DNA of 55,028 nt from a virus (IMGVR_UViG_3300025832_000011:1-55028), one strand, 5' to 3'; numbered from the stretch's first letter, positions 10,779 to 53,887 are shown. Notes: generated by a model from the sequence alone, not told the origin. Translations and numbers: made by a program.

Positions 10779-11258
10779 ATGGCCACAAAACCCGAACTCT
10801 CTGGTGCCCTCGACAAACAGGTCGGTGGCAACCACTACAAAAAGGGCATCCAGCCCTTCCACCTCTCGTATGCCAACGGACATGATGGCTGCATCCACGC
10901 CATGACCAAGTACATGACGCGGCACCGTCGCAAAGACCCCGAGAAGGGGTACGAGGATTGCCAGAAGGCCCACCACATCACGGGCATCCGACTCGATCTG
11001 ATAAGTCTGGTCGGTGAACCTGCGCCCCCTCCGAGGCCGCGCCTTCCTATTCAAGACTACGTGGAAGCGAACGAACTGGTCACCCAAGACGCTGTTGCCG
11101 TCTACGCCATCGAAGCATGGCACGAGCGGTGGAACGCAGGAAGTGCCACACGCCAAGGGGCCACCCACGAGATGTGGCACAACAACATTCGCAGCCTTAT
11201 CCGCGCTGCCGCTCAGGCGGCGTACCCTGAATTTTACAATGAGAAAGATTTCGTATGA
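10779..11258 (+). CDS. DUF3310 family protein
   Basis: KQVGGNHYK, KYMTRHRRK..GYEDCQKA; ATG 10779 with AAAGGA RBS. Confidence 0.8.
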   Translation: MATKPELSGALDKQVGGNHYKKGIQPFHLSYANGHDGCIHAMTKYMTRHRRKDPEKGYEDCQKAHHITGIRLDLISLVGEPAPPPRPRLPIQDYVEANELVTQDAVAVYAIEAWHERWNAGSATRQGATHEMWHNNIRSLIRAAAQAAYPEFYNEKDFV

Positions 11259-11833
11259 ACGACCTACACCCCACCGACACGACCTATGTGATCGAAGTGA
11301 ACCCCCGCGCCTCGGAAGGATACGTCCGCATCCCCGTGGTTGGCTGGATCATAGAAGAGGGTCGCCCCCTGCCCATGACCCTCAACGGCAAGCACACCCT
11401 GATCGGGGGCTGCGCTGTCCTGTTCCCCGGCGGGATGGTCGAGAACCCGTCCGATGGGTACGCCTTTGACTCAATCGAAGCGTGGTTGGAGACCAACCCC
11501 GGCAAGGGCAAGGCCCATGCACCCGCAGAGAAGGCCAAGACGCCTGCTCAGGAGCGCGACGAGGGAGAGATGGGTGCCTACGACATCGAATGGACTGAGG
11601 ACACGTTCAAGAACAACTCGTTCTGGCACTACGATGACGGTGAGTTCGAGTTCGTCTTCCAGATCGACGGAGGCGAGGCTCTGCCCAAGGCTACCAAGTA
11701 TGTGGTCAAGATCAAGCGCGACGAGATGATGGCCCTGAAGAAGAACGTGGACCTCTTGTCCGTGGCCGACATCATGGACGCCAAGCCGCTTGAGGTCGAG
11801 ACAGAAGAAGATGATGGGATGGACTTGCTGTAA
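11255..11833 (+). CDS. Hypothetical two-domain protein, acidic tail ending MDLL
   Basis: 192 aa, coupled to both neighbours. Confidence 0.8.
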   Translation: MNDLHPTDTTYVIEVNPRASEGYVRIPVVGWIIEEGRPLPMTLNGKHTLIGGCAVLFPGGMVENPSDGYAFDSIEAWLETNPGKGKAHAPAEKAKTPAQERDEGEMGAYDIEWTEDTFKNNSFWHYDDGEFEFVFQIDGGEALPKATKYVVKIKRDEMMALKKNVDLLSVADIMDAKPLEVETEEDDGMDLL

Positions 11834-12132
11834 TGGCCGACCTGTCTGAACTCGATGACCTCATGGGTGATGCCCCCAGCGATACTGCTGGGGACGCCAC
11901 CTACCGAGTAACGGCCAACGAACTCCGTTCCTTCGTTGAGCGCATCGAATACAACAACGCGGAGAAGGCCGACCTCGCCGAACAAGGCAAGGAGATTTTG
12001 GCCGAAGCGAAAGCCCGTGGCTACGATACGAAGATACTCAACAAGATCGTAGCCATGCGCAAACGTAACGCTGACGACATCGCAGAAGAGGGGGCTGTCT
12101 TGGAGATGTACATGGAAGCCCTTGGCATGTAG
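11833..12132 (+). CDS. gapR: GapR (DUF2312) nucleoid-associated protein homologue
   Basis: ELRSFVERIE...KEILAEAKARGYDTKIL...RKR...LEMYMEALGM. Confidence 0.9.
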   Translation: MADLSELDDLMGDAPSDTAGDATYRVTANELRSFVERIEYNNAEKADLAEQGKEILAEAKARGYDTKILNKIVAMRKRNADDIAEEGAVLEMYMEALGM

Positions 12133-12341
12133 TGCCAGACTCCGACCTGCTCGATCAGATCGAGGCGATGGGCGCGGATACCGTCTACTTCATTAAGCGT
12201 GGGGACGGCCTCTGGGGGGTGCATGTGCGCCATCCGGGGGCTGGCCCCTGCGCCTACACCCTGACCAACTGCCGAACGCTCCGAGGTGCCGTACAGGCTG
12301 CCGTTGAGCCTTCTGACACAGAAATTGAGGACCTGCTATGA
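12132..12341 (+). CDS. Hypothetical protein ending EIEDLL
   Basis: 69 aa, GTG start overlapping gapR stop. Confidence 0.65.
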   Translation: MPDSDLLDQIEAMGADTVYFIKRGDGLWGVHVRHPGAGPCAYTLTNCRTLRGAVQAAVEPSDTEIEDLL

Positions 12342-12532
12342 GAACCATGACTGAGATTAACGGGGACATAAGCGCAGAAGAGCGCATCGCTGTTCAGGCA
12401 CTACAAGACGCCATGAATTACTTCCGAAGAGTCTCTGGAAAATCTTGTTTGTTGTACGCCTTCAAAACGGAAGAAGAAGCCGAAGCTGCTATGAAGAATT
12501 TCGACGCGGCTCTCGGGGGCACTAGCAAATGA
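12338..12532 (+). CDS. Hypothetical protein
   Basis: 64 aa, GAGGA RBS, ATGA overlaps both sides. Confidence 0.65.
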   Translation: MRTMTEINGDISAEERIAVQALQDAMNYFRRVSGKSCLLYAFKTEEEAEAAMKNFDAALGGTSK

Positions 12533-13260
12533 ACAAGAGCATCGACCCGGATAAAGAATACTCGTGCCCATCCTGCGGACTCGTAGGACCAGAGGCGTGT
12601 GGCTCTGCCGAGGACATGGAGGACTGTCCACACATGCGCATCGCTGACGGGCCTCTGGCTGGCCTCAAGATCAACCACTACAAGGTGATCTACGCAGACC
12701 CTCCGTGGTCCTACAAGACCTTCAGCAAACCCAAGGAGGGCACAGTGCCGCACCGCTCCAAGGACGAGCCGTACAAGAGCATGACCGCCGAAGAGTTGCT
12801 GGCCCTGCCTGTCCACAAGATCGCGGCCAAGGACTGCGTGCTGCATATGTGGGTGATCAGTTCCCATCTCGATCAGGCTCTCGCTCTGGGGGCTGCGTGG
12901 GGCTTCACGTTCAAGAGCCTTGGCATGGTCTGGGTCAAGACCCAGAAGCACAACCCCGAGGTCCCCAAGATGGGCATGGGCAAGTGGTTCCGGCAAGAGG
13001 CTGAGATATGCCTGCTGTTTACCTGCGGGAAGCCCAAGCGGGTCTCTGCCGGGGTGCGCCAGACGATCCTCGAACCTGCTCGGGAGCACAGCCGCAAGCC
13101 AGACGTGGCCTATGAACTGGTCGAAGCCCTGACAGACGGCCCCTACCTTGAGATGTTCTCTCGGTCGAGCCGCGAAGGCTGGGAGGCTATGGGGAATCAG
13201 GCTGGGAAGTTCGACCCCATCGACTTGTCCGAAGAAGCGGAGATCGACGGGCTTCTATGA
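12529..13260 (+). CDS. MT-A70 family N6-adenine methyltransferase with N-terminal Cys cluster
   Basis: VIYADPPW, LHMWV, WGFTFK...WVK, REHSRKP, LEMFSR..REGW..MGNQ; N-terminal CPSC...C...C. Confidence 0.9.
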   Translation: MNKSIDPDKEYSCPSCGLVGPEACGSAEDMEDCPHMRIADGPLAGLKINHYKVIYADPPWSYKTFSKPKEGTVPHRSKDEPYKSMTAEELLALPVHKIAAKDCVLHMWVISSHLDQALALGAAWGFTFKSLGMVWVKTQKHNPEVPKMGMGKWFRQEAEICLLFTCGKPKRVSAGVRQTILEPAREHSRKPDVAYELVEALTDGPYLEMFSRSSREGWEAMGNQAGKFDPIDLSEEAEIDGLL

Positions 13261-13764
13261 AGCTGGGAGAACTCTGAACGTGTTGGACCAACCGCGCATC
13301 TGTTTCACAGGAAAGTCGGGCTTGGTCATGTCTCGTGTCAGTTGGATACGATATGTGCCCGGCCCGACCGCGCAAGGGCGACCGAAGAACCAGTTCCAGT
13401 TGACCGTTCCGTCTGGTCCTAGGACATCCACGATGTCATAGTCATCGACCCCCGAGCCGGAGCAGTAATTCTGGAACACACCTTCTCGACCGCCGGGGTT
13501 GACCTTCTGAACTTCCGCGACCCAGAACCCTCTGTGAGACTCCAAGATCAGGCGGTCATAGATCATGCCGGGGTTACTGCCCTCGACATGATCCGGCACG
13601 TAAATCTCCTGAAGCACGAACCAATCGGTCGCCGGGATGTCCGCCTTCTGCAAAGCCTCCCGGTACACGATCATGTTGACCGTAAGGTACGCCAGCGCGG
13701 ACGCCACGAACAGTTCGGTCAGGCGGGAAAACCACCACCTCGGGCTTGTAAGGTTAGTCAGCAC
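13255..13764 (-). CDS. Lysis-cassette membrane protein (one TM plus periplasmic-type domain)
   Basis: 169 aa, TM LFVASALAYLTVNMIVY, two Cys; last gene of late arm. Confidence 0.7.
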   Translation of the reverse strand: MLTNLTSPRWWFSRLTELFVASALAYLTVNMIVYREALQKADIPATDWFVLQEIYVPDHVEGSNPGMIYDRLILESHRGFWVAEVQKVNPGGREGVFQNYCSGSGVDDYDIVDVLGPDGTVNWNWFFGRPCAVGPGTYRIQLTRDMTKPDFPVKQMRGWSNTFRVLPAS

Positions 13765-14038
13765 GGAGAACCCCTTTCACGAAGTCTGCGATGGTCCCCT
13801 CAGTAACAACCCAGAGTGTCAAAAGGAAGCCGAGAAGGATCGCGGTGTTCCTAATGCTGCTCAGGACCTTGAAGGTTCCTTCCCAACTCTGATACCAATC
13901 AATCGCCCGCAATGCTACCTTGCTCTGGTCTGCGGTGAGCGCAACAATGTGCCCTGTCTCTACCATCCGGCGCAGGTCTTTGAGGGTCTTAGCCTCTTGG
14001 TCTTCGAGCCGTGAACTATCACCGTTACCCCAAAACAT
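13754..14038 (-). CDS. Putative holin
   Basis: 94 aa, single TM (AILLGFLLTLWVV), directly after spanins. Confidence 0.55.
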   Translation of the reverse strand: MFWGNGDSSRLEDQEAKTLKDLRRMVETGHIVALTADQSKVALRAIDWYQSWEGTFKVLSSIRNTAILLGFLLTLWVVTEGTIADFVKGVLRAD

Positions 14039-14041
14039 ATC

Positions 14042-14326
14042 CTACTCCTTCTGTCCGAGTTTAGACGCGACATCCTCGTACTGAGCAACGACGTTCTGGT
14101 GTTTCTTTCGGCAGTCCGCAAGGGCTAACCGGGTATCCGCCACCGCGACATAAGCGTCTGAGTCCACGCCCGGATCGTAACAAACCTTCTTGTCTCTCGG
14201 ATCGAGGGGTGGTGCCTGATAAGGTGCCGCGCCCTCATTTGATCCCAAGCAACCGCTTGCGAAGGTCGTCAGGGATAGGACAAGAGCCAGCTTCCCCGGA
14301 TTCAATTTCTGTCTTGAGTTTTTCAT
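14042..14326 (-). CDS. o-spanin (Rz1-like lipoprotein)
   Basis: Lipobox-like LALVLSLTTFASG-C, Pro-rich linker, overlaps 3' end of i-spanin. Confidence 0.75.
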   Translation of the reverse strand: MKNSRQKLNPGKLALVLSLTTFASGCLGSNEGAAPYQAPPLDPRDKKVCYDPGVDSDAYVAVADTRLALADCRKKHQNVVAQYEDVASKLGQKE

Positions 14327-14597
14327 AGGCTAGTCCCAACTCGGTCAACTCCCCCTCGGTCTTGTCTGCCCGAGCACGGGCGGCTGCCGCTATATCCTGA
14401 GCGATCTCAGATTGGCGGTTCGCTTCTGCCAGTTCCTCTGTTTCATACTTCTCAATACACGCAGCGGTAGCATCGGCCCTTTGGTACATCGTCCAGAGAA
14501 CAAACGCTAGGACAACCACAAGGAATTTACCCGCCGGGCTGAAGAGGAACCCGGCGAATCGTTTGAAAGATGTGGCTGCGAGCCACCCGCTAATCAT
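14235..14597 (-). CDS. i-spanin (Rz-like)
   Basis: ATG 14597 overlapping endolysin stop; N-terminal TM, coiled coil, C-terminal CPIPDD. Confidence 0.75.
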   Translation of the reverse strand: MISGWLAATSFKRFAGFLFSPAGKFLVVVLAFVLWTMYQRADATAACIEKYETEELAEANRQSEIAQDIAAAARARADKTEGELTELGLAYEKLKTEIESGEAGSCPIPDDLRKRLLGIK

Positions 14598-15778: not shown

Positions 15779-15781
15779 GGT

Positions 15782-15818
15782 GATCCCCTATGATTTCATG
15801 ATTCAACCATAGGGGATC
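15782..15818 (-). promoter_or_regulatory. Hairpin sequestering the endolysin RBS
   Basis: GATCCCCTATG / CATAGGGGATC 11-bp perfect inverted repeat ending 3 nt before ATG 15778. Confidence 0.7.
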
Positions 15819-15837
15819 GGTAGCTTATTGGGAAGCC

Positions 15838-16563: not shown

Positions 16564-16573
16564 TGGTAGCCTC

Positions 16574-33667: not shown

Positions 33668-34033
33668 TTACAGCATGTCCTCGCCGTCGCCTTCGCCGTT
33701 GCCTTCGCCGTTGCCTTCGCCGTCGCCTTCGCCAGCATCTTTCTTGGCAGGGGCTTTCTTGGCAGGGGCTTTTTTGGCAGGGGCTTTTTTGGCCGAGCCG
33801 ACTTTGACAGGATCATGTTCTCTGTCAGAGTCTTTGCACAGTTCGATTGCGCCCTTGTCGAGCAGTTCCTTGCAAGTGTCGCTGTCCGGGTCGATCTCAA
33901 AGCGGCGTTTGGCCGGAATGATAACGACCTTCGGGGGCGTGGGCGCGATGCCTTTGGCTTTGTCGCCAGCCTTGCCGGGAACGTCTGTGATGTGGACCTC
34001 TGTGATCGCACGGTACGTTTTTGAAGCAGCCAT
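33668..34033 (-). CDS. Low-complexity protein after capsid gene (KKAPA and GEGD/N repeats)
   Basis: GGGAG RBS; KKAPAKKAPAKKAPAKK then GEGDGEGNGEGNGEGDGEDML. Confidence 0.75.
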   Translation of the reverse strand: MAASKTYRAITEVHITDVPGKAGDKAKGIAPTPPKVVIIPAKRRFEIDPDSDTCKELLDKGAIELCKDSDREHDPVKVGSAKKAPAKKAPAKKAPAKKDAGEGDGEGNGEGNGEGDGEDML

Positions 34034-38951: not shown

Positions 38952-41132
38952 TCATGCAAGATTGGACGCTAGGTCCTTGAGTGAACGCCTGTCTTTGCGC
39001 TCTGTGCTATAGGGCTTATCTTCTACTTCTGGGTCAAATACCAGATCATTCATATCCCAATCCTCTGCCCACAGGGGAGGGTCTTGCCAGTTAATATGCT
39101 CGATGTTGATGGTTGGCGTCAACTGTGCTGCCAGACAGTACGCCAGAAGGTCCCAACTCTCGTTCCGGAAACCCTTGGGATTGAGCCACCCCTTCTGGGG
39201 GTCGCGGACCTCGACCGTCAGTTCGATGAAGAAGTTGTCGTCCAACCAATCGGGGAACAGGATGCCGTTGCCCGGCTCGATCCGGTCGAGCATGTTGTTC
39301 AAGGAATCCTTCACGAGATTGGTGTTGATGAAGAGCACAGGAACTTCGCCGCGTGCGCCTGCGTGCCTGTCTTTCCTCTGGCTATCTGGGTACGAGATCA
39401 TGGCCCGAGGTGCGGTCTTGGTCGAAGCACCCTTGAGCAACAGGAACCGCCCAGCTAGGCCCGGACGCCAACTGTAATCGCCTTCTTCGTTCTCGTCAGT
39501 GGACTCGTGACCCTCTTCGGAGCGGTCGCCCCACTTCAGCCAGCGGTAGAAGTCGTAAGCGTTGGCCGTGGTGCCTGCTTTACCTCCTGAGTCACAGACC
39601 GTGAACCGGACGCCCATGGCTCTGCCGGAGCCGTCGATCAGTGGGTACGTCTTGTCCAAGACCTCTTCGACCAACAGCTTCCAATCCTCGGGGTGGGCAC
39701 CGGGGTTGACCCAATACCGCTCACCTTCAGGATCATGCCGCTTGGACTTGCGGATGTCGAAACGATCTACGACCGAGATGTCTTTGTTCGCATGGACGCC
39801 GTGAACCTGTACGACAAAGCGGTTCTTCTGCACGTCGATGGATGCGATCAAGAACCGCACACCGACCGGAACCTGCCGGATCGCAATCGGCTTTGCCCGC
39901 GCCTTCAGGACCTCGGGCACGCGGTCGTTCGTCATGCTCTTGGGCGTATAGGGCTTCCCTTGGTCAGTGTTGACCGTGGTCTTGAGGGATTCCTCGGAAC
40001 CGTTGCTCTCGTACTCTCGTTCGGCTGTGATATAGTTGAACACCAGCGTCTTCCAATCAGAGAACGCAGCGGCCACACCCTTCAGCCAGAAGGACGCGAT
40101 TGACGATCTCGTGGGCGTGCCATGGATGACGCCGTGCTGGTCGATGTCGCAGTTGTCAGGCACCCACCGCCCATTGCGGTTCATCTCGTGCTTGCCGGGG
40201 CGACCGTTCGCCGGATCGTGGCGGTAGATGCCGCGTCCGGTCTCTGCGTCCCCGCAGTGAGGGCACGCCAGATGCGCGTTTTCCGCAGCCGTCATGGCGT
40301 CGTCAATATCTTCATAGACCAGCAGTTCAAAGTCAGGCTCAAACCAGTTGCGGCAATCTACGCACTGCCAGTACCACAGCCTGCGGTCGCCCTGATTGTA
40401 AATCCCCAAGATTCCCTTGGTAGGCGGGGCTTCGTGCTTCGTGGTCTTGATCCACTTGGGATTGTCCACCGAGTAGCCCGGAGATGATTCAACAGCACAC
40501 ATGCCGTGGCTACGGAACGTGGTCGCACGCTTACGAGCCAGAGAGAACGCGCTTCCCTCGCCGTCGATGTTCTCCGGCATCCGGTCATAGTCCGTGAGCC
40601 AGAGGCGCGGGATCGGCTTACCTGAGAGTTCGTTGATCGCAGGCCACGACATCGAAAGCATCATGCCCGTCCGGTACTGCTTGTCGAAAGTGTTGTCGCT
40701 CTGGGTGCCTGCCGCCAGCATAGCGCCGATCTCAGGGCTGTGACGGTGCAAACGATCTATCCGGCGAATAGAGAAGTCGCGGGATGTGGTCTGCGAGGTC
40801 TGAACGATCATCATGTCTGCCGGGTCGCATTTGGCCGAGTACCCGACCCAATTGATCACCATGTCCGTCTTGCCCGTCTGCGCGGGGCCAACGAAACACA
40901 TACCTGTGACCTTCTGTGATTGCAGCGTATCCATCGGCTCGACCAGATAGGGCGTGACCGAGTTCAGCCACGGACCCACATAGGAACCGGGGTTGTTCAG
41001 GTGGCGGTAGGCTTCAGCGGACTCGGATACCGACATGCGCTGTGCAGGTCGGACTGCTTCAGCAGCGTCGAGGATCAGGGCCTCAAGCGAGAACTCAAAT
41101 GAGGTCGGAGAAGTCATCTTCATCTTCGTCAT
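38952..41132 (-). CDS. Terminase large subunit (lambda GpA family)
   Basis: TPYLVEPM, GPAQTGKT, LTDYDR, SSPG, CxxC pairs, IDVQ, DSGG, RNE.WD. Confidence 0.93.
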   Translation of the reverse strand: MTKMKMTSPTSFEFSLEALILDAAEAVRPAQRMSVSESAEAYRHLNNPGSYVGPWLNSVTPYLVEPMDTLQSQKVTGMCFVGPAQTGKTDMVINWVGYSAKCDPADMMIVQTSQTTSRDFSIRRIDRLHRHSPEIGAMLAAGTQSDNTFDKQYRTGMMLSMSWPAINELSGKPIPRLWLTDYDRMPENIDGEGSAFSLARKRATTFRSHGMCAVESSPGYSVDNPKWIKTTKHEAPPTKGILGIYNQGDRRLWYWQCVDCRNWFEPDFELLVYEDIDDAMTAAENAHLACPHCGDAETGRGIYRHDPANGRPGKHEMNRNGRWVPDNCDIDQHGVIHGTPTRSSIASFWLKGVAAAFSDWKTLVFNYITAEREYESNGSEESLKTTVNTDQGKPYTPKSMTNDRVPEVLKARAKPIAIRQVPVGVRFLIASIDVQKNRFVVQVHGVHANKDISVVDRFDIRKSKRHDPEGERYWVNPGAHPEDWKLLVEEVLDKTYPLIDGSGRAMGVRFTVCDSGGKAGTTANAYDFYRWLKWGDRSEEGHESTDENEEGDYSWRPGLAGRFLLLKGASTKTAPRAMISYPDSQRKDRHAGARGEVPVLFINTNLVKDSLNNMLDRIEPGNGILFPDWLDDNFFIELTVEVRDPQKGWLNPKGFRNESWDLLAYCLAAQLTPTINIEHINWQDPPLWAEDWDMNDLVFDPEVEDKPYSTERKDRRSLKDLASNLA

Positions 41133-41781
41133 CCTCTGCTAGGGCTGGGTTCAATACTAATGATGTTTCTTCCTTGGCGTCCTTCAGGATGACATCCAGT
41201 TCGGCCAACTGGGGGCCTGTCATGTTAGCCTCTGCGTTCTCCTTCAGGGAGTCGAACAGGGTACTTTGCAGCTTATCGGTCATGGTGTTCAGCAGGTCGC
41301 GCTGCTCTTCGCTCAGGCCGACTTGCCGTTCGATGGTGTCGCCCCAAAGCTGGATCGTGAACTTCATGGTCTGGAACATCGCGCCGATGGTGGAGCGGAT
41401 GGTCTCGGTGCGCCAAAGCTGACCCGCGTTCTCTTCCCACTTCTGCCGCTTCAACTGCGCGTCCCAGAAAGCCGTGTTGATGGCCGGAGGCAGGTCTTCT
41501 CTCTTGATCTGGGACAGGATGTCTTCGACCTTGATCTTCGGCTCTACCAGATATGCGGCAGCCGTGGCGAGGTCGTACACGTTCTGCATTTGGGTGGTGC
41601 CGCGCTTGCGGTACTCTTTGACCGGGCAGTTGACCAGCAGCAGCTTCGTCTTCTGAGGGGCGATCTTGAAGGTCTGCGAGAGGAACGCGACCGTCACCCC
41701 CTGCAAGGCACTATCCGCCAGCACGCTCTGCGAGGCCCCTCGGGATGCCAGTTTCGTCAATCTCTCGTCTATGTCTTTCAT
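41095..41781 (-). CDS. Terminase small subunit (DUF1441-like)
   Basis: YDL..AA.YLV.P, DLPP..N..FW.AQ.KRQ.WE..AG.LWRT; directly upstream of terL. Confidence 0.8.
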   Translation of the reverse strand: MKDIDERLTKLASRGASQSVLADSALQGVTVAFLSQTFKIAPQKTKLLLVNCPVKEYRKRGTTQMQNVYDLATAAAYLVEPKIKVEDILSQIKREDLPPAINTAFWDAQLKRQKWEENAGQLWRTETIRSTIGAMFQTMKFTIQLWGDTIERQVGLSEEQRDLLNTMTDKLQSTLFDSLKENAEANMTGPQLAELDVILKDAKEETSLVLNPALAEDDEDEDDFSDLI

Positions 41782-44627: not shown

Positions 44628-46742
44628 TCAGTCCTTTTTGAAAACCTTGGTCGTGAACCCTGCCGAACCGAGCGGGAGATCAAGCGCCCAGCGAGGGTGT
44701 TCTTCCATGCACTCGATCAAGAGAGTCAGATCACGGTCGGCCTTGCTCTCTTCTGTCAGGCAAACAATCTGGTCGTGAACGTGGAGCCGGATGTCCAACT
44801 GATACCGCTTGTGTGCCAGCATCATGCCGTTCGCCAACAGGTCGCGGCTGATCGCTTGGTCCACGTTCTCCGTCAGCTTGCCGGGGTGCGTCTGCTGCCT
44901 GACCCACTGCTTCCGATCATTCAGGCCCATATAGGTGATGGTGTCCTTCATGTCGCCCCATGGGGCCTTCTTCTGCTCGATCTTAGGCTCTTTGTAGTGT
45001 AGGTGCCGACCCGATGGCAGCTTGATCCTCATGTATGGACCCTTGAGGTCAAAAGTGACCTGATCGAACTTCTGCGGCTTTCCTGTTTTGATGCACTTCA
45101 TGGCTGCCCGTTCGATGGCGTACCAATAGGATTTCACTTCCTTAAATTCCCGGCGGAACGTGTCCACGCTCAGCTTGGACTCCTCGTGGGTGAAGTGCTT
45201 CACGCCCATGCCCCAAGCGTACCCAAGGAGACCTGTCGCTTCGATCTCTCCGGTTGTCAGGTCCTCGTAGGTCTGGCCGGGGCCGAGCATGTACCCACAT
45301 CCCAGCACGCCGGGCTTCGCAATGGTCCGCTTGGCGCTGTCACCAGCTTTGTACTCTGCGATCAGCTTGTCATACGGCTGGTGGAACAGATAGGTGGCGA
45401 AGTCCACATAGGGGTCGCGGCCCTTCTCGAACACGTCGAGGATTTTCTGGCACCGAGCCATCCAGCCAAGCACCCTGTTCTCGATGGCGTTGAGGTCTGC
45501 GTCGATGAACATCTGGCCCTCGGGGGCCTGCGCTGCCGGGCGGATACAGGAGGCCAGCACGTCGAAAGTGTTGGGATAGATCATCTCGATTGATTCGCGG
45601 TCCAGCTTCTCGATGTTGGCCGCATGAATCTCGATGCCCTTCTCGTACCGCTTCTCGGGGCGTGGGAGGTTCTGCGCCTGAAAGAGCCGACCTGCCCAGC
45701 GTGCCGTGCGCTGCGCTCCGGCGAACTGCAAGGTGTACCGGAGCAGTCCGTGCTGGCCGTTGCCAACTGGGTCCGTGGCCTTCTGCAAGGCGTGGAATTT
45801 CTTGATCGAAGACCGTGAGAGTTCAAGCCGCATGTCGAGGGCCTGCATGAGTTCTTCGTTGTACTGGTACTCCATCCACTGCATCTCGTCCCAATGGTCT
45901 GGCTTCTTATCGAAGTACGACCGAGCCTGCTTGACGTGGCCTTTCTTCAGGTCGTCAAACGGGTATCCTTGGGCTTGGAGCCACGGGAGCAACTGCTTCG
46001 GGGACATAGGGTTCCCGAGGTGTGTCACCTCCTGCATTTGCTGGAATCCGATAGCGTAGGACTCGTCGTAAAGCCGAACAGCATTGTGGACCATACCGAG
46101 GTTGATCGGCAGGCCCTTCCGGTTGATCATCTGGTCCAGTTCCCACAATTCCCATTCGTGGGCTGGGGGTGCGTAGGGGTCGATCAGCTTCTTGATCTCA
46201 TACTCTGCACGGGTGTCGCCTCTGTTGTATTCCAGATAGCCTTCCCAATCTTCCATGGCTTCGTACCAGTGAGTTCGGATCATCTGGCCCATGGTGGCTT
46301 TCCGGCGCGACTTCGACCGCATCGAGAACTTGCGCATGAGTTTGCGGCCCGTGTCCATCTTCAGCTTTTCCATGGGGATGCCGACCGCAGGGCCAGCTTT
46401 CTCCAAGGAGCCGGGGTAGGCGCAAAGCTGCGCCATCGCCATGGTGCATCGCCACTGTGCGACATCCACAGGGATGCCCAGACAGTTCTCGGTGATGTTC
46501 ATCTCGAAAGGTGCGTTCCATGCCCAAGTCGTAACTTCAGGATCGACAAAAGCCTCTTTGAGGATTTTTGGCATCTCCTGTCCTTCGGCAGGAATCCACT
46601 GCTGCATTGGTCCACCGTCTATCATGAACGCTGCCATGAGGACTTCGGTACTCTCGTGGCGGGAATAGACATCGGACCCAACTTTCGTAAGGTCTGTGTC
46701 AGAAAAAGTTTCAAAATCAATGTTCATGACGGACTTAGACAT
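44628..46742 (-). CDS. DNA polymerase family A (3'-5' exonuclease + polymerase)
   Basis: IDFET, NA.FE, T.RWAG...Q.QNLPR, motif A DLNAIENR, motif B RTIAKPGVLGCGY, motif C HVHDQ. Confidence 0.93.
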   Translation of the reverse strand: MSKSVMNIDFETFSDTDLTKVGSDVYSRHESTEVLMAAFMIDGGPMQQWIPAEGQEMPKILKEAFVDPEVTTWAWNAPFEMNITENCLGIPVDVAQWRCTMAMAQLCAYPGSLEKAGPAVGIPMEKLKMDTGRKLMRKFSMRSKSRRKATMGQMIRTHWYEAMEDWEGYLEYNRGDTRAEYEIKKLIDPYAPPAHEWELWELDQMINRKGLPINLGMVHNAVRLYDESYAIGFQQMQEVTHLGNPMSPKQLLPWLQAQGYPFDDLKKGHVKQARSYFDKKPDHWDEMQWMEYQYNEELMQALDMRLELSRSSIKKFHALQKATDPVGNGQHGLLRYTLQFAGAQRTARWAGRLFQAQNLPRPEKRYEKGIEIHAANIEKLDRESIEMIYPNTFDVLASCIRPAAQAPEGQMFIDADLNAIENRVLGWMARCQKILDVFEKGRDPYVDFATYLFHQPYDKLIAEYKAGDSAKRTIAKPGVLGCGYMLGPGQTYEDLTTGEIEATGLLGYAWGMGVKHFTHEESKLSVDTFRREFKEVKSYWYAIERAAMKCIKTGKPQKFDQVTFDLKGPYMRIKLPSGRHLHYKEPKIEQKKAPWGDMKDTITYMGLNDRKQWVRQQTHPGKLTENVDQAISRDLLANGMMLAHKRYQLDIRLHVHDQIVCLTEESKADRDLTLLIECMEEHPRWALDLPLGSAGFTTKVFKKD

Positions 46743-47261: not shown

Positions 47262-47282
47262 GTCTGGTCCCCATGCTGAGTT

Positions 47283-47435: not shown

Positions 47436-47462
47436 CGTATTCGGCCTTCCGGATGGTAGAAG

Positions 47463-47484
47463 GGGGGCCAGTTGCCCGGCCCCC
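47463..47484 (-). terminator. GCAA-loop hairpin after SSB gene
   Basis: GGGGGCCGG-GCAA-CTGGCCCCC, weak U tract. Confidence 0.55.
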
Positions 47485-47490
47485 AGAGAC

Positions 47491-48177
47491 TTAGATCAGG
47501 CTGTCTTCGCCGTCACCCTCTGTCTCAATGTCGTCTTCGATGTCGCCCTCGTAAGACACGTCATCATCATCCAACAGATCGTCAGGATCGCCACCACGGT
47601 TCGCAAACGGCTCACCGTCACGGAGGAACTGGACCGTCGAAAAGGAAGCGTTGATGCGGTTGGGCATCTTGCGCTTCGGGTCTTTCTTCTGTCCGTACAG
47701 TTCAACGATCCCGTTGACATAGCACCCAGCATAAGGTGCGCCCTTGCGACCCTCTTCCGCTTCCAACCACTTGTCGTCGGAACCTTTACGGTTCGTGATG
47801 ACCCGTGGCGGGTACTTCGCGGGGCTTGAGCAGGACAGGATATAGTGCCCGGCATACTCGTCCCGAGGAGTCTGGAAGTGATCGTCGTTGTCGCCGTCTT
47901 TGAAGCACGTCATGGACGCGGGAATCTTCGGCCAATCGGCCTCGGACTCGCCCCATGCTTTGCGCTTCGCTTCCCGAGACCCTGCTTTGATCAGCGCCAA
48001 GATCGCCTTCAAATTGGGGTTATCTTCCTTCGGGATCATGAGGACACAGTTGAAGGTCTTACGGGTCGTACCGTCATCGTTCTCCTGCTCCTGCGGTTCG
48101 AAGATGTGCGGGAACGACAAGCGTGCCCCTTTCACAACAACAGTACGCGGGTCTTTCTTCTTTTTCTCAGTAGCCAT
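47491..48177 (-). CDS. DUF2815 single-stranded DNA-binding protein
   Basis: ARLSFPHIF, DGD, YAGCYVN, VQFLRDGEPF, acidic tail; ATG 48177. Confidence 0.88.
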   Translation of the reverse strand: MATEKKKKDPRTVVVKGARLSFPHIFEPQEQENDDGTTRKTFNCVLMIPKEDNPNLKAILALIKAGSREAKRKAWGESEADWPKIPASMTCFKDGDNDDHFQTPRDEYAGHYILSCSSPAKYPPRVITNRKGSDDKWLEAEEGRKGAPYAGCYVNGIVELYGQKKDPKRKMPNRINASFSTVQFLRDGEPFANRGGDPDDLLDDDDVSYEGDIEDDIETEGDGEDSLI

Positions 48178-48196
48178 GTTTTTCGTTCTTTCAGGT

Positions 48197-49513
48197 TTAT
48201 AGGAGTTCATCGAACTCGTCGGGGGTTTCCTCGTACATCTCGTCCAGCAAGTCGTCGTCGCTGGGGATCGCTGCACGCGGGTCGGTTTCGGGAACCAGTA
48301 TCGGTTTGCTGTCGCCTTGGACAACGTGCCGTTCATACCGGGTCTGGTATGCTGCTTTCCCTACTTCGTCCTCGACCATAGTCGGGGAGCGGAGTTTCTT
48401 GGTCCATGCCTCTTCCTTGAGATCATGCTCCAGTAATATCTGTGCCTTGTTGGCATCCTTCCACCGCCTTGCCCCAGAGCGACCCGGAACACGCTTCAGA
48501 CCGGGCGTAGGTAAGCCTCGGGATGCGTCTTCCATCGCCTCTTCGTGCAGTTGCTTGAGTAAGCTGGTGATCAGCTTCTCGTGCAGCAAAATCTGCGATC
48601 TCTGCTCCGGCGTCAAGGCCCTGCGATCCACGAGGTCGGGTTCGGCCCCGATCATGAGATCATCTTCCAGTTCGTCCAGTTGCAGGTCGATCAGATCGGC
48701 GGCGTACTCGATCCGAGTCTTGCATGTGTTGAAGAACGCCGCCTTGCAGAACTTGCACTGCTTCTCGCCGGGGGTGCGCGGCTGACCGGGCAACAACGTC
48801 TGATCGGCCAGCTTGCGGATGCGCTTCAGTTCCTTCAGGAGCGGCCCCAGCTTCGTGCGCCAGACGCCACCCCCACCGGGGGCACGGGGCTGCTCGATGA
48901 TGATCACCACTTCGATGTCGTCACGGGCTTCTTCCCACGTCTGATACTTGTCCCCCGTCTCGCCCAACTCGTATGCGTCACGGAACCGATCATGTGCGAA
49001 CGTGTCCCAGACGCCGCCCGTGTAGAGCGTAGCCTGTTCGTTGTGCTCAGGGCTGACCGGAACACCAGCGCCCCACTTCCAATCGAACGTGGTCAACATC
49101 CATTCGATGGGGTTGATCACGAAAGCGTCAGCAGTGCCGCTCTCGTCATCGCCCACCCAATTCGCAAGGTTCACACGCCGTTCTACGTAGAGTTCGGCAC
49201 CGGGAGTATCAGCCAAGGCCCAGACCATATCGAGGCCAGAGACCATCTTATTCGCCATCTCTGCGGTGAACTCCCGATAGGCTCCATCCTCGCAGAGCAT
49301 CCGGTCGCCCACGAGGGGCCACGGGTCCAGACCGAGTTCGAGACAGTCCGCAGCGTAGTCGTGGAAGACCGTGCCCTGAATAGCCTCTTCGCCTGCCGTA
49401 TCTTTCAGCCCCTCTTCCTCTTCAACAGAGCCGAGGCAACGCACCCAACGGTGCGCTGTCGAAGGCGACCTCTTGGAGTGGAAGCCGGGGACTTTGATCG
49501 GTTCAGGCAGCAT
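48197..49513 (-). CDS. DUF2800 Cas4-like PD-(D/E)XK exonuclease
   Basis: HS..SPS.AHRW..C.GS, GT..H, GTAD, DWKWG.GV.V, N.Q..LY, QPR, QCKFCKA...C. Confidence 0.88.
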   Translation of the reverse strand: MLPEPIKVPGFHSKRSPSTAHRWVRCLGSVEEEEGLKDTAGEEAIQGTVFHDYAADCLELGLDPWPLVGDRMLCEDGAYREFTAEMANKMVSGLDMVWALADTPGAELYVERRVNLANWVGDDESGTADAFVINPIEWMLTTFDWKWGAGVPVSPEHNEQATLYTGGVWDTFAHDRFRDAYELGETGDKYQTWEEARDDIEVVIIIEQPRAPGGGGVWRTKLGPLLKELKRIRKLADQTLLPGQPRTPGEKQCKFCKAAFFNTCKTRIEYAADLIDLQLDELEDDLMIGAEPDLVDRRALTPEQRSQILLHEKLITSLLKQLHEEAMEDASRGLPTPGLKRVPGRSGARRWKDANKAQILLEHDLKEEAWTKKLRSPTMVEDEVGKAAYQTRYERHVVQGDSKPILVPETDPRAAIPSDDDLLDEMYEETPDEFDELL

Positions 49514-49734
49514 TACAGCAAGTCCTCGTCGTCGATGGCCTCGAACAGATCGTCACCCTCTTCCATCTTCTGCTCTTCGGCGAGATGGTGAAGCAGAGCA
49601 ACTGCGTGGCTCAAGGTTGTGGCATAGTCGAACTGGTTCGCGGCTATTGCTCCGTCGCGGACCTCGATAACAGCCTGCCGGATTCCCATGATGGCTTCGG
49701 AGTCGAAGTCTTGGTCGTCGATTGTAATGGGCAT
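49513..49734 (-). CDS. Hypothetical acidic protein ending DDEDLL
   Basis: 73 aa, GGAGG RBS, TAATG coupling. Confidence 0.7.
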   Translation of the reverse strand: MPITIDDQDFDSEAIMGIRQAVIEVRDGAIAANQFDYATTLSHAVALLHHLAEEQKMEEGDDLFEAIDDEDLL

Positions 49735-50121: not shown

Positions 50122-50214
50122 ATCTTGTCCTTTGGTCAGGAGGGCTGTTTCGACCCCACGCACGTCCCGTGACCGAACGTGGGGTCAGGATGCTACGAGG
50201 CACCCAGAAGACGA

Positions 50215-50604
50215 TTACATGAGGTCGCCGTCTTCTTCTTCTTCCCCGCCGCCGAAGGGGTCTTCACCCGCTTTGTACTGTTCCAAGAGCGCAAGCGCCT
50301 CTTCATAGTCACTGGCTTCGAGGTTTGAGATACGATCTACGCTGAAGTGCGTGATGATCGCTTTGGCCGCTGCCTTGGCACTCTCACGTTCGTCCTTGTC
50401 CCCTGTCTTCAGGAACTCGCCGAACGCGGAGATGACATCATCGGCTGTCGGGCCTTTCTTGGCCGCAGGCTTTTTCGCCGCCGCCGCCTTGGCTGCTGGT
50501 TTCGCTGCTGGTTTCGCCGGGGCTTTAGCTTCGCCCCCTGCGAGGGCTGCGGTGTTCGCTTCGACCGCTGCGGTCAGTGCTGTGATTGCTGCTTCGAGAG
50601 ACAT
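50215..50604 (-). CDS. Chi-like Ala/Lys-rich protein with acidic tail
   Basis: MSLEAAITALTAAVEANT...KPAAKPAAK...EEEEDGDLM; ATG 50604. Confidence 0.8.
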   Translation of the reverse strand: MSLEAAITALTAAVEANTAALAGGEAKAPAKPAAKPAAKAAAAKKPAAKKGPTADDVISAFGEFLKTGDKDERESAKAAAKAIITHFSVDRISNLEASDYEEALALLEQYKAGEDPFGGGEEEEDGDLM

Positions 50605-50640
50605 GATGGTCCTTCCCATGGTTTCTGTCTTTGGAGCCTG

Positions 50641-50700
50641 ATACATAGGATCGGACGCATGGGGTTGTCAACCCCCTGTTGACCATCTATATGGTGATTA
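50641..50700. promoter_or_regulatory. Divergent promoter/operator region
   Basis: Palindrome GGGGTTG-T-CAACCCC (50661-50675) containing - strand TTGACA; + strand TTGACC with ACCAT-CTAT-ATGGT. Confidence 0.65.
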
Positions 50701-50718
50701 AGCAAAATGGAGAATGTA

Positions 50719-51012: not shown

Positions 51013-51082
51013 AGCCCCAGCCTAATCTGACCGGGCCGTCTCCTGACCGGGCGTATCCCCTTTGTAACGAATAGGACCTGCA

Positions 51083-53887
51083 ATGACCACGCTTTCTGAC
51101 CTTTACTCGAATACGATTCTCTTCTCACTCGGGGCTGGCGACAACCTCGGAAAAGCCAAGAACACCTCGGAGACGATCCGTAAATTCGTTGATCGTTTCC
51201 GCAAGCCTCATGTGACCCCGGAGAAGTACCGGGAATACAAAGCCATGAATGATCAGCGCCAGCGGACCCTGAAGGGGATCGCCGGATGGATGATGCGCGG
51301 CTCGATCAAGAAGGGCGAGAATCGCAACCGCAACTCGATCCAGCCCAGCAAGTTGATGACGCTGGACATCGACTATGCGACCCCCGAGTTCGTTGAGATG
51401 CTACTGGCCGGGAAGATACTGCCCGGCGCGGCCTTCATTGCCCACAGCACACGCTCCCACACCCCCGAGAAGCCTCGCCTCCGAATCATCATCTTCCTGA
51501 AGGATGCCGTGAGCCGCGACCGCTATCAGGCAGCCAGCCGGATCACCGCGCAGGCAGCCGATCCCGAGATGCAGTGGGTGGACAAGGTATCGTTCCGTCC
51601 TGCTCAGATGATGTACATGCCAACCGTCTCCAAAGACATGGAGAAGCACTATGTCTTCTACGAACAGGGTGGCGAACTCTGGGACCATGAAGACGCCATC
51701 GAACAGTGGGAATTGCTGAACGACTCGGCCACCGACATCGCAAACCTGCCCCGGACGCCGGGCGAGGACGAGTTGCGCGAAGCAGCCGACTTTGCCGAAG
51801 ACCCTCTGGACAAAAAGGGTCCGGTCGGAGACTTCTGCCGCGCCTACTCGATCACCGATCTGGTCGAGGGCAAGGATGGCGAGCCGGGTATTCTGGCTCA
51901 CCTTTACACGGCGACCGAGTGGCACAACGGGGCCATCACACGGATGACGTGGCTCGGGGGCGGCAGTTCCAACGGCGCGGTCGTCTACGATGACAAGTTC
52001 GTCTACTCGCACCACGGCACCGACCCGACTGCCGACAAGCTGGTCAACGCCTACGATCTGGTCCGCATCCACCTCTTCGAGAAGTTTGACGAAAAGGCTG
52101 ACAGTGACACGGCGATGAAAGACCTGCCGTCCACCAAGAAGATGACCGAGTTCCTGAGCGATAATAAGCACTTCAGGATCGCCCAGACCGAGAGCCGCTA
52201 CAACATCGAAGACATGCTGTCCGATGATGACGTGGATTATGATGCTGGGTCAGAACGTGACATAGACGAAGGCGAGTTGTCCGAGATGGACGACCTGCTG
52301 GGGACTCCTGTCGCCAGCATTGCCGCGCCTAGATTGCGCAAGAGCCACCGCAGGAACCTCGCCGAAAAACCGCCGAAGAACTGGATCGCTTCCCAACTGA
52401 GCCTAACGGCTGACGGGAAGATCGAGAACAATTCGTGGAACATAGGGATGATCCTCATGAACGATCCCCGTCTCTGGCGGAAGATCGGGCGCAACGAGTT
52501 CAACTACCAGATCGCTATGGTCGATGACGTGAAAAGCAAGATGGAACTGCTCGTCCCCTACGAGTGCAAAGACAAAGACAATGGAGACCGCTGGCAGGAC
52601 CACTTCGACAATCTCTGCCGCACCTTGCTTGAGGCCCCTACGGACAAGGGTGGCTACGGGATGTCTGTGCCGATGGAGAAGGTGCGGCAGCAGATCGACA
52701 ACGTGGCTCGGAGGAACAGTTTCCATCCGGTTCAGGAGCGCATCCTCGACCACGCAGAGAACGGCGAACCGGGCTTCGACATCGAACGGGTGTTCCTTGA
52801 TTACTTCGGGGCCAAAGAAGACAACGCTTATACGCGGCAGGCTTCGCGGCTGTTCATGATCGCCTCGGTCGCTCGGGTGTTCGAGCCGGGCTGCAAGTTC
52901 GACTTCGCTGTGATCTTCGAAGGCAAGCAGGGTCTCGGTAAATCGACCGCGATCAAGAGGCTCTACGGGCAGGAATACTTCGGCGAACTTGAGACCGATC
53001 TGGGGAACAAGAAAGAGACCGCAGAACACATGATGGGCAAGTGGGCCTTGGAACTGCCGGAATTGTCAGCCCTGACCAAAGGTAAAGCTGACGCCAACAG
53101 CACCAAGTCCTTCATGTCGCGGCAGCATGACGATGTGCGTCTCTCCTATGAGAAGCATATGGCACAGTTGCCGCGCCAGTGCGTGATCTACGGTACGACC
53201 AACAACAAAGAGTATCTGAGCGACCCGACCGGGAACCGTCGCTTCTGGCCCATGCCTGTAAAGGACGAACCCATCGACTCCATCGCCATCATGCGCGCCA
53301 AGGCGAGCATCTGGCGTGCAGCCTATGAGGCGTATGTCGAGATGCGGTCCAACACGCACACATCTCTCGACCTGCCCTTGTTCCTGACCGGAGAAGCCGC
53401 CGAGATCGGATTGCGGATGCAGGAGGGTGCTCGCAAAGAGGGGACCGCCGAGAATTGGGCGAAACAGGCGGTAGAGTGGGCCGATGAAAAGATGACCCTG
53501 CAATCCTTCATATCTGTGTCTAACTTAGGAGACGGCTTAGAACAGCGGTACAAGGGCTACGATGTAGACAACACGCTCGTCTGTCGGGTTGGGGTCGCAC
53601 AGAAGGAACTGTTCCGCGAAGTCCTCGGGGTGAACAAGAACACCTCTATCTCGCAGCAGGAGCAAAACCTTTACCTCGAATACCTAGAACATATGCAGCG
53701 GCTAGGTTGGGTAAAATCTAGGAATTTGATCGGTGGGGTTCAGGCCGTTCGCATGATCCGACCGGACTTGACCAGAAACGAAAAGTACGAAGGCTTCCGG
53801 GTGGTCGGATCGGCGGATGCCCCAGAATCCGCGACCCCACAAGTTGACGATGACGAAGGCTACGGAGACAACAACGACCTACTTTAA
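51083..53887 (+). CDS. Primase-helicase (PrimPol-like N-terminus + VirE/VapE ATPase)
   Basis: LDID, HSTRSH..EKPR.R, YSHH..DP; PGCKFD...EGKQGLGKST, ELPEL, GTTN..EYL.D.TGNRRFWP. Confidence 0.9.
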   Translation: MTTLSDLYSNTILFSLGAGDNLGKAKNTSETIRKFVDRFRKPHVTPEKYREYKAMNDQRQRTLKGIAGWMMRGSIKKGENRNRNSIQPSKLMTLDIDYATPEFVEMLLAGKILPGAAFIAHSTRSHTPEKPRLRIIIFLKDAVSRDRYQAASRITAQAADPEMQWVDKVSFRPAQMMYMPTVSKDMEKHYVFYEQGGELWDHEDAIEQWELLNDSATDIANLPRTPGEDELREAADFAEDPLDKKGPVGDFCRAYSITDLVEGKDGEPGILAHLYTATEWHNGAITRMTWLGGGSSNGAVVYDDKFVYSHHGTDPTADKLVNAYDLVRIHLFEKFDEKADSDTAMKDLPSTKKMTEFLSDNKHFRIAQTESRYNIEDMLSDDDVDYDAGSERDIDEGELSEMDDLLGTPVASIAAPRLRKSHRRNLAEKPPKNWIASQLSLTADGKIENNSWNIGMILMNDPRLWRKIGRNEFNYQIAMVDDVKSKMELLVPYECKDKDNGDRWQDHFDNLCRTLLEAPTDKGGYGMSVPMEKVRQQIDNVARRNSFHPVQERILDHAENGEPGFDIERVFLDYFGAKEDNAYTRQASRLFMIASVARVFEPGCKFDFAVIFEGKQGLGKSTAIKRLYGQEYFGELETDLGNKKETAEHMMGKWALELPELSALTKGKADANSTKSFMSRQHDDVRLSYEKHMAQLPRQCVIYGTTNNKEYLSDPTGNRRFWPMPVKDEPIDSIAIMRAKASIWRAAYEAYVEMRSNTHTSLDLPLFLTGEAAEIGLRMQEGARKEGTAENWAKQAVEWADEKMTLQSFISVSNLGDGLEQRYKGYDVDNTLVCRVGVAQKELFREVLGVNKNTSISQQEQNLYLEYLEHMQRLGWVKSRNLIGGVQAVRMIRPDLTRNEKYEGFRVVGSADAPESATPQVDDDEGYGDNNDLL

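Follow-up and report, generated by a model that had tools for sequence, protein, structure and literature searches.

Ten unrelated proteins encoded by a Casjensviridae cyanophage end in one short acidic tail with an aliphatic tip, and related phages carry the same kind of tail with an ending of their own. The window, meaning the whole stretch of DNA that was analysed (IMGVR_UViG_3300025832_000011, 55,028 nucleotides), is nearest to phage S-ESS1. Of its 63 gene calls, 10 end in D.?[LM][LIM], against 0.14-0.25 expected. Across the family, six syntenic genes carry an acidic tail, and the endings agree within a genome far more than permutation allows. This suggests that the tails co-evolve and probably share one recognition partner, with a docking code private to each genus as the most likely, though inferred, function. 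The observation made in the preliminary description, that ten C-termini share this tag, is confirmed in full; its interpretation as a docking code or a proteolysis signal read by one hub is supported only in part.

Acidic tails of ten unrelated proteins

The genes were called with a codon-usage score trained on the long ORFs. The ten carriers, and the polymerase considered below as a candidate receptor, are:

11255..11833 (+), 192-aa protein of unknown family, acidic tail ending ..DLL, with an internal ..DLL.. about 25 residues upstream
12132..12341 (+), 69-aa protein of unknown family, tail ending ..EDLL
12529..13260 (+), MT-A70 adenine methyltransferase with a short acidic extension after the catalytic domain, ending ..DGLL
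33668..34033 (-), 121-aa head-module protein encoded directly after the major capsid gene, tip ..DML
41095..41781 (-), terminase small subunit (TerS), tail ending ..SDLI
47491..48177 (-), gp2.5-like (Enc34-type, DUF2815) ssDNA-binding protein (SSB), 228 aa, conserved internal ..DDLLDDDD.. block plus the tip ..DSLI
48197..49513 (-), DUF2800 (PD-(D/E)XK, Cas4-like) exonuclease, internal ..DDDLL.. plus the tip ..DELL
49513..49734 (-), 73-aa very acidic protein (pI 4.05), internal ..DDLF.. plus the tip ..EDLL
50215..50646 (-), 143-aa protein of unknown function, conserved upstream of the exonuclease, tail ending ..GDLM
51083..53887 (+), primase-helicase (VapE/D5-like), tail ending ..NDLL
44628..46742 (-), family A DNA polymerase (PolA), untagged

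Each of the ten tails has at least 5 acidic and 0 basic residues among its last 12. Comparison with acidic-tail composition had been named in advance as a test of the observation, and the motif is far commoner than composition predicts: 0.14 matches per 63 proteins are expected from amino acid composition, and shuffling the last 12 residues of each protein gives a mean of 0.25 and a maximum of 3 in 20,000 shuffles. Among ORFs of 40 aa or more that are not called genes, 1 of 419 matches. Of the 12 strongly acidic tails in the window, 10 end in [LM][LIMV]. With the last 15 residues removed, the ten bodies show no similarity; the best BLASTP E-value is 0.036, and that hit lies in an out-of-frame overlap region. 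The last 30 coding nucleotides are on average 49% identical (maximum 67%), only positions 1-2 are constrained in the last three codons while third positions vary, and the stop codons and downstream sequences also differ. The similarity is therefore at the protein level.

The family annotations of the preliminary description are confirmed by Pfam and PHROG searches: MT-A70 (PF05063 at 4e-30, phrog_359), DUF1441/TerS (PF07278, phrog_141), Enc34/gp2.5-like SSB (PF10991 at 4.8e-27, phrog_112), DUF2800 (PF10926 at 2e-51, phrog_69) and VapE (PF05272 at 1e-62, phrog_256), and its guess of Casjensviridae is also right. The same searches return no family for the proteins at 11255..11833, 12132..12341 and 49513..49734, and only PHROGs of unknown function for that at 50215..50646; the Atlas gives no usable hit for the first of these and no annotation for the last. 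Two points required correction. The SSB gene, whose start and conserved blocks were placed by alignment, is 47491-48177, and the longer ORF to 48336 overlaps the nuclease gene. The claim that structural-module proteins lack the tag is not strictly true, since 33668-34033 lies in the head module, although the MCP, portal, tail and lysis proteins do lack it. The nucleotide-metabolism enzymes (RNR, ThyX, DHFR, pyrophosphohydrolase), PolA, the SNF2 helicase, VRR-NUC, the C5-MTase, the GapR-like protein and TerL are likewise untagged.

The head-module carrier occupies the position of lambda gpFI: TerL is of the GpA type, and Ad1, portal, protease, decoration protein and MCP follow in lambda order. 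The protein has a predicted N-terminal small beta-barrel, a Lys/Pro/Ala-rich linker and an acidic Gly/Asp/Glu repeat before the tip. In the AF2 model the N-domain has pLDDT 81-91 and the linker is below 50. The top Foldseek hit of this model is 2LSM at a weak E of 0.49 (probability 0.84), and VIA-align to gpFI gives Z 3.9 and rmsd 3.1 over 48 residues, at rank 20, below GINS B-domains at Z 5.2; no Pfam or PHROG family matches. In the AF2 model of the SSB the core is confident, while the tail, with pLDDT below 50 (47-48 for the conserved blocks), is not placed anywhere with confidence.

Conservation and private endings in Casjensviridae

Of 40 orthologues found in six relatives at 41-93% identity, 37 keep the aliphatic tip while the acidic linker drifts; the 3 exceptions are all in the S-ESS1 record, where the ORFs look frameshifted. 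The orthologue of the 192-aa protein in the relative G002 (67% identity) ends ..DML, and those of the 69-aa protein in G002 and S-ESS1 end ..DLI and ..DLL. Six TerS orthologues end ..DLI, ..DLL, ..DLI, ..DLI, ..GLI and ..SLI, six orthologues of the 143-aa protein end ..DLM (three times), ..SLM, ..GMV and ..ALV, and the primase-helicase tail is conserved in 6 of 6 orthologues, which end ..DLM, ..DLL, ..DMI, ..SLL, ..DLI and ..DLI. Five intact exonuclease orthologues keep an aliphatic tip, the S-ESS1 copy being broken. No orthologue of the 73-aa protein was found in the six relatives, so it is a lineage-specific carrier or a doubtful gene. Among the 120 best homologues of the MT-A70 methylase, 86 carry an acidic tail ending [LM][LIMV], whereas more distant ones end ..LLG, ..LIG or ..LLA, or stop right after the domain. 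Of 16 aligned after-MCP sequences (the window's protein and 15 homologues), 15 end in two aliphatic residues although linker length varies widely.

The tag is a family-wide trait and not a peculiarity of this genome. The six syntenic genes with an acidic tail encode the primase-helicase, a small protein upstream of the exonuclease, the DUF2800 exonuclease, the gp2.5-like SSB, TerS and the protein after the major capsid gene. The ending differs by genus: ..DEV in Enc34 and Chi, ..DLLG in Ruegeria V11, ..DDL in Pseudomonas SS2019XI, ..DL[IV] in Klebsiella N133 and ..D[LM][LIM] in the window. The gene after the MCP gene is tagged in Enc34, Chi, Ruegeria V11, Pseudomonas SS2019XI and Klebsiella N133, TerS is tagged with the local ending in Enc34, Chi, Pseudomonas and Klebsiella, and the small gene upstream of the exonuclease is tagged in Enc34, Chi, Ruegeria V11 and Pseudomonas. 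Each genome has many proteins with its own ending and almost none with the others': 8 of 84 in Enc34, 9 of 73 in Chi, 7 of 80 in Ruegeria V11, 10 of 63 in the window and 9 of 81 in G002, with a single off-diagonal hit. Klebsiella N133 and Pseudomonas SS2019XI behave likewise. This cross table is partly circular, as the endings of the other genomes were defined after looking at them, although the window pattern came from the preliminary description.

A permutation test, which uses no pattern, was applied to 7 Casjensviridae genomes and 6 syntenic families. It finds 65 within-genome pairs with an identical last residue, against a permutation mean of 25.9 (maximum 47), and 57 pairs identical in the last two residues, against 12.4 (maximum 36). 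In both cases 0 of 50,000 permutations reach the observed agreement, and the result still holds without Enc34, but the test treats genomes as independent although they are related. A narrower test on metagenomic loci outside the family was not significant: the SSB and nuclease tips in 12 clusters share 8 of 36 positions against 5.2 expected, a value reached in 1,919 of 20,000 permutations. Loktanella phage pCB2051-A has only a weak, degenerate version of the tag, and its primase has none.

Interpretation of the tails

The tails are best explained, with a probability of about 0.6, as a short linear docking motif composed of a disordered acidic linker of variable length and sequence, often a second upstream hydrophobic-acidic element, and a 2-3 residue aliphatic tip at the free C-terminus. 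In this view the six syntenic proteins form the core set of carriers in Casjensviridae, with lineage-specific additions that include the MT-A70 methylase and three small proteins here and RdgC-like, ParB-like and PAPS-reductase-like proteins elsewhere. Since all copies in one genome share the same tip and the tip differs between genera, they most likely fit one recognition surface that co-evolves with them and is most likely phage-encoded. By analogy with T7 and T4, the acidic run would steer the tail to a basic patch, and the terminal aliphatic residues with the carboxylate would plug a hydrophobic pocket, tethering replication, recombination, methylation and packaging proteins to the same place on replicating phage DNA. 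The sequences themselves demonstrate that the motif exists, is under selection and co-varies within genomes; that it docks, that it binds a single receptor, and which protein that receptor is, are inferences without any binding result behind them. PolA is a tentative first choice and the ssDNA groove of the SSB a still more doubtful one, both by analogy only. PolA (PF00476) has no PDB sequence match; it has a conserved basic loop at about residues 128-155 and a conserved basic C-terminus, which is never tagged in the 55 loci where the match includes it, out of 62 with a PolA match. It is not obvious why TerS and a head-module protein should meet a replisome component.

A host hub, such as the beta sliding clamp or the pockets that normally receive the host SSB C-terminus, appears unlikely but is not excluded; docking there would recruit host machinery to phage DNA or block it. 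Most endings fit a loose [DE]-x-aliphatic-COOH rule that a single tolerant pocket could read, hydrophobic-acidic C-termini are what the T4 clamp binds (PMC2988020), and the carriers (nuclease, methylase, primase) resemble a clamp 'toolbelt' clientele. No phage clamp gene is present: PF00712 and PF00705 give no match in the 92%-complete record, and neither does PF02916, in a search that had no positive control. However, the penultimate residue is also uniform within a genome (E in Chi and Enc34, L or M in the window), and it differs between phages of closely related enterobacteria (..DEV in Chi and Enc34, ..DL[IV] in Klebsiella N133), whose clamp and SSB partners should be nearly identical. This argues against a conserved host pocket and favours a phage-encoded hub, if only indirectly. 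The beta-clamp-binding motif of the QL[SD]LF type has a glutamine 4-5 residues from its hydrophobic end, and none of the ten tails has Q in its last six residues. Moreover, the polymerase, the usual first client of a clamp, is untagged.

It is also unlikely that the tails lack a common receptor and that each folds back on the DNA-binding surface of its own protein as a DNA mimic, sharpening specificity or preventing premature DNA binding, as described for T7 gp2.5 and the Enc34 SSB. Every carrier of known function binds DNA, the nucleotide-metabolism enzymes lack the tag, removal of the Enc34 SSB tail lets that protein bind dsDNA (PMC5686142), and the T7 gp2.5 tail is reported to compete with ssDNA for its groove. 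Yet unrelated DNA-binding folds would not be expected to demand the same 2-3 terminal residues within a genome and different ones between genera, and other DNA binders in the window (PolA, SNF2 helicase, C5-MTase, GapR-like protein, TerL and VRR-NUC) are untagged. A degradation or processing signal timing the removal of early DNA-handling proteins is less likely still, although none of the tests applied here separates it from docking: C-terminal hydrophobic residues are typical protease determinants, and a common reader would also produce the within-genome agreement. The carriers, however, include proteins needed throughout and late in infection (SSB, TerS and the head-module protein), the documented function of equivalent tails in T7 and T4 is docking, and no protease other than the prohead protease was seen among the proteins scanned, which did not include all 63. 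Chance, composition or a DNA-level artefact, such as Shine-Dalgarno-like purine runs for the next gene or gene conversion between tail-coding segments, is refuted as far as sequence analysis can refute it. Acidic codons are purine-rich and several carriers are followed closely by another gene, but the methylase ends a convergent gene block with no downstream gene, the tips are conserved across orthologues while the purine-rich linkers are not, and the shuffles and the divergence of the tail-coding DNA point the same way.

Comparison with known tail-docking systems

The preliminary description regarded the tags as the best candidate for an undescribed system, which needs qualifying, since the principle is documented for two proteins of T7 and three of T4. 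In T7, the acidic C-termini of gp2.5 (SSB) and gp4 (primase-helicase), each ending in Phe, dock on basic patches of the family A polymerase gp5, and PDB 6P7E holds the gp4-tail peptide on gp5 (PMC12339929); the gp2.5 tail also acts on gp4 and on the nuclease gp6 (PMC4124056). The window has the same replication gene set of gp2.5-like SSB, primase-helicase and family A polymerase, with an acidic disordered tail and a hydrophobic last residue on the first two. In T7, however, only 2 of 52 annotated CDS share the ending, against 10 of 63 here and 7-9 in related genera. The T7 gp2.5 and gp4A tails end ..DF, whereas 0 of 10 window tails end in F, W or Y and all end in L, I or M. The carriers extend to the nuclease itself, TerS, a head-module protein and a methylase, the ending is genus-specific, and the PolA, as a putative receptor, is too divergent for any PDB sequence match.

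The similar hydrophobic-acidic C-termini of T4 gp43, gp55 and gp33 bind the sliding clamp gp45 and are interchangeable (PMC2988020). There, too, several unrelated proteins of one phage carry one C-terminal epitope on a divergent flexible linker, sharing one phage-encoded hub that links replication to another process. The window, in contrast, yielded no clamp gene in the searches above, its polymerase is the one untagged replication protein, and there are 7-10 carriers per genome against three in T4. The bacterial SSB C-terminal tip is likewise an acidic linker with a hydrophobic end that acts as a portable docking peptide, but the topology is reversed: one tail with many receptors in bacteria, against many tails with presumably one receptor here. 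The tip residues differ, and the SSB of the window belongs to the gp2.5/Enc34 family and not to the bacterial family (PF00436). The Enc34 ORF6 SSB, a homologue of the window's SSB with a crystal structure, has an acidic tail that lies in the groove of a neighbouring molecule in the crystal (PMC5686142). As far as we could see, the tail is treated there as a feature of the SSB only; our comparison shows that seven other Enc34 proteins end in the same way.

Gene content of the record and the ten acidic tails

The 55,028-base virus record, estimated to be about 92% complete, has Synechococcus virus S-ESS1 (Casjensviridae, Sessunavirus) as its nearest named relative, at 75% nucleotide identity over 58% of a 24-kb query. 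Its gene order matches Enc34, Chi and Ruegeria phage V11, and runs from the primase-helicase through an HTH regulator, small proteins, the DUF2800 exonuclease, the gp2.5-like SSB, the family A polymerase, VRR-NUC, the SNF2 helicase, TerS, the lambda-type TerL, Ad1, portal, protease, decoration protein and major capsid protein (MCP) to the neck and tail genes. Genes were called with a codon-usage score trained on the long ORFs, yielding 63 genes.

The preliminary description claimed that ten unrelated proteins share one acidic C-terminal tag, and this observation holds: all ten C-termini are as described. Ten of the 63 proteins match D.?[LM][LIM]$, each with at least five acidic and no basic residues among the last 12. 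The expected count is 0.14 from amino acid composition and 0.25 from shuffling the last 12 residues of each protein (maximum of 3 in 20,000 shuffles), and 1 of 419 non-gene ORFs matches. With the tails removed, the ten proteins are unrelated (best E-value 0.036). The tail-coding DNA is 49% identical on average, and only the first two positions of the last codons are fixed. Stop codons and downstream context differ, and the methylase gene ends a convergent block with no downstream gene. The resemblance is therefore selected at the protein level, and is not a by-product of ribosome-binding sites or gene conversion. Several tails also contain a second, upstream hydrophobic-acidic element, and in the SSB this internal block is conserved across relatives.

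Further features of the record:

11833-12132 (+), a GapR-like DNA-binding protein (PF10073, 2.6e-26), encoded between two tagged genes and itself untagged
12529-13260 (+), the MT-A70 methyltransferase, one of two DNA methyltransferases of the phage, tagged
43744-44625 (-), the C5-cytosine methyltransferase, the other of the two, untagged
33668-34033 (-), the tagged protein encoded after the MCP gene, with an invariant PGKxGDKxKGIAP motif in its N-terminal barrel and a basic Lys/Pro/Ala repeat followed directly by an acidic Gly/Asp/Glu repeat
41778-43265 (-), the SNF2/DEAD helicase, with a conserved, strongly basic C-terminal helix
47283-47435 (-), a 50-aa ORF with a Lys/Pro-rich, very basic C-terminus that scores as coding
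47455-47490, just downstream of the SSB stop codon, a G+C-rich inverted repeat (GGGGGCC....GGCCCCCC) that looks like an intrinsic terminator or a regulatory hairpin between the SSB and the polymerase

Conservation of the tails in relatives and across Casjensviridae

Six relatives were compared, namely the genomes G002 (98% complete), G001, G003, G004, G005 and S-ESS1. Of the 40 orthologues found, 37 end in an aliphatic pair at 41-93% identity, while the acidic linkers change in length and sequence. The three exceptions are all in the S-ESS1 record (NC_052968.1), where the tails are lost in what look like frameshifts. Many genes of this record are split or overlapping, including primase and helicase, two PolA pieces and two SNF2 pieces, with the DUF2800 gene present only as a misc_feature, which is probably sequencing or assembly error rather than biology. 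The 73-aa carrier (49513-49734) has no orthologue in these relatives. Among the 120 best database homologues of the methylase, 86 carry an acidic tail ending [LM][LIMV] directly after the conserved end of the MT-A70 domain, and more distant ones have other endings or none. In the protein encoded after the MCP gene, 15 of 16 aligned sequences (that of the window and 15 homologues) keep the tip despite linkers that differ by up to about 50 residues. A search of IMG/VR with TerS returned only four close relatives, and look-ups of the 143-aa and 192-aa carriers in the ESM Atlas gave no annotation.

In 74 more distant loci that encode a DUF2800 nuclease, the SSB and the nuclease, and often the primase, also end in an acidic run with a hydrophobic tip of varying type. 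The same holds in cultured phages with this replication module from Streptococcus, Bacillus and E. coli. Within Casjensviridae the pattern is sharp: the same six syntenic genes carry the tag, and the ending is private to each genus.

C-terminal endings in Casjensviridae genomes (genome; ending; proteins with that ending)
Enc34; ..[DE][DE]EV; 8 of 84 gene calls
Chi KFS-SE1; ..[DE]D[DE]V; 9 of 73
Ruegeria V11; ..D[LI]L[GSA]; 7 of 80
Pseudomonas SS2019XI; ..[DE]DL; at least 9
Klebsiella N133; ..D[DSE]L[IV]; at least 9
Window; ..D.?[LM][LIM]; 10 of 63
G002; ..D.?[LM][LIM]; 9 of 81 (one hit is not acidic and is probably chance)

No genome has proteins with the ending of another, apart from one hit in Loktanella; Loktanella pCB2051-A displays only a weak version of the tag. 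Additional carriers in other genera are RdgC-like, ParB-like, PAPS-reductase-like and methylase proteins. As the patterns for the other genomes were chosen after inspection, we also performed a pattern-free test in which tails were permuted among genomes within each of six gene families. The observed number of within-genome pairs with the same last residue is 65, against a mean of 25.9 (maximum 47), and for the last two residues it is 57, against 12.4 (maximum 36). Neither value was reached in 50,000 permutations, and the result is unchanged in kind when Enc34, which shares its ending with Chi, is dropped. A narrower test outside the family, comparing SSB and nuclease tips in 12 clusters of metagenomic loci, showed no significant agreement.

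Candidate receptors

No receptor emerges from the sequence data, and the candidates rest on indirect grounds. PolA is untagged in every locus where its C-terminus is present, and has a conserved basic C-terminus. It also holds the most basic 30-residue window of any protein in the phage, in a loop conserved across the family. The groove of the SSB is the other candidate, as the Enc34 tail lies in the groove of a neighbouring molecule in the crystal (PMC5686142). The basic C-terminal helix of the SNF2 helicase (..LLEAMKRRKKK type) is conserved across very distant lineages (homologues in loci L010-L082 of the comparison) and is the charge opposite of the tag, while TerL would be the natural partner for the TerS tail, as judged from lambda. 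No clamp family was found in the record, and no PDZ- or TPR-like domain appeared in the 40 window proteins scanned with Pfam.

Complex prediction of PolA (alignment of 44 rows) with the last 43 residues of the SSB returned a score of 0.00 in both runs, without controls, and says nothing either way. An AF2 model of the whole SSB, built to see whether its tail docks in cis, leaves the tail unplaced: the tail blocks have pLDDT 47-48, with only a short helix at 198-201 over the internal ..DDLL.. block. The protein encoded after the MCP gene is predicted to contain a small beta-barrel, for which gpFI is the top Foldseek hit, but at E 0.49 and VIA Z 3.9 it does not stand out from other small barrels. 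The Lys/Pro-rich ORF at 47283-47435 was considered as a counter-ion partner, but it has no counterpart in the relatives.

In one lineage of DUF2800-module phages the family A polymerase is split at about window residue 388 (N-terminal halves in loci L045, L057, L062, L064, L065, L072 and L074, C-terminal halves in L067 and L075, around locus positions 12000-18000). The N-terminal half initially appeared to have gained the tag (..AEDLV or ..AEDLL). Alignment shows, however, that this is the native internal PolA sequence at the split point, the break falling right after a native ..EDL[VL] sequence. In L057, L064 and L067 an ORF of 99-308 aa lies between the halves, and in L075 the halves abut; this may be a homing-endonuclease or intron-type insertion. 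Unrelated to the tag, the flank of the APSE-7 replication module (L112, locus 5127-6026) includes the annotated CdtB toxin cassette known for these aphid-symbiont phages.

Interpretation and comparison with T7 and T4

The tails of the window are the local form of a family-wide, co-evolving C-terminal tag, and the observation is highly non-random. Six unrelated folds would not be expected to converge on the same two or three terminal residues in each genome, and on different ones in different genera, unless one recognition partner sees all of them. The interpretation offered in the preliminary description, a docking code to one hub, is the best reading and is partly supported. The analysis itself establishes the tag, its selection at the protein level and its agreement within genomes, whereas docking, the existence of one receptor and the identity of that receptor are inferred. 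The recognition partner is more likely encoded by the phage than by the host, since Chi and Enc34 on one side and Klebsiella N133 on the other infect closely related enterobacteria yet differ at the penultimate position in every carrier. This evidence is indirect, however, and most endings still fit a loose [DE]-x-aliphatic-COOH rule. On present evidence, degradation is not distinguished from docking.

A more far-reaching possibility, which we regard as tentative and somewhat less likely than not (about 0.4), is that Casjensviridae run a private, fast-evolving C-terminal address code, in which one phage-encoded receptor reads a genus-specific tip of 2-3 residues on 7-10 otherwise unrelated proteins. 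This would physically couple replication, recombination, DNA methylation and genome packaging on the same DNA, giving a clamp-less viral counterpart of the PCNA/beta 'toolbelt'. Because tip and receptor would co-evolve, related phages co-infecting one cell would not cross-recruit each other's machinery. If the tails do share one receptor, the family offers a direct handle on how siphoviruses of the Chi/Enc34 type organise a replication-packaging factory without a clamp, a simple sequence rule for assigning unknown small proteins to that factory (four of the window's carriers have no family), and a natural set of orthogonal peptide-receptor pairs. The question is open to test, as Chi and Enc34 are cultured phages and one carrier, the Enc34 SSB, already has a crystal structure.

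Literature searches on the Enc34 SSB, on DUF2800 with DUF2815, on acidic C-termini in Casjensviridae and on short linear motifs found no description of a multi-protein tag, although subscription journals and supplementary files were outside their reach and prior mention cannot be excluded. The Enc34 study treats the tail as a property of the SSB (PMC5686142). The mechanism we favour is provided by published precedents. In T7, the acidic tails of gp2.5 and gp4 bind basic patches of the gp5 polymerase, with the terminal Phe in a pocket, and PDB 6P7E holds the gp4-tail peptide (PMC12339929; PMC4124056). Suppressors of tail mutations in T7 mapped to gene 5. In T4, the similar hydrophobic-acidic C-termini of gp43, gp55 and gp33 bind the clamp gp45 and are interchangeable (PMC2988020). 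As a check on T7 itself, only gp2.5 and gp4A among 52 annotated CDS were found to share the acidic ..DF end. Shared acidic C-terminal tails are textbook for two proteins in T7 and three in T4, whereas in Casjensviridae the same device marks 7-10 proteins per genome across a whole phage family, including the small terminase, a head-module protein and a methylase, and its tip changes in step in all carriers from genus to genus.
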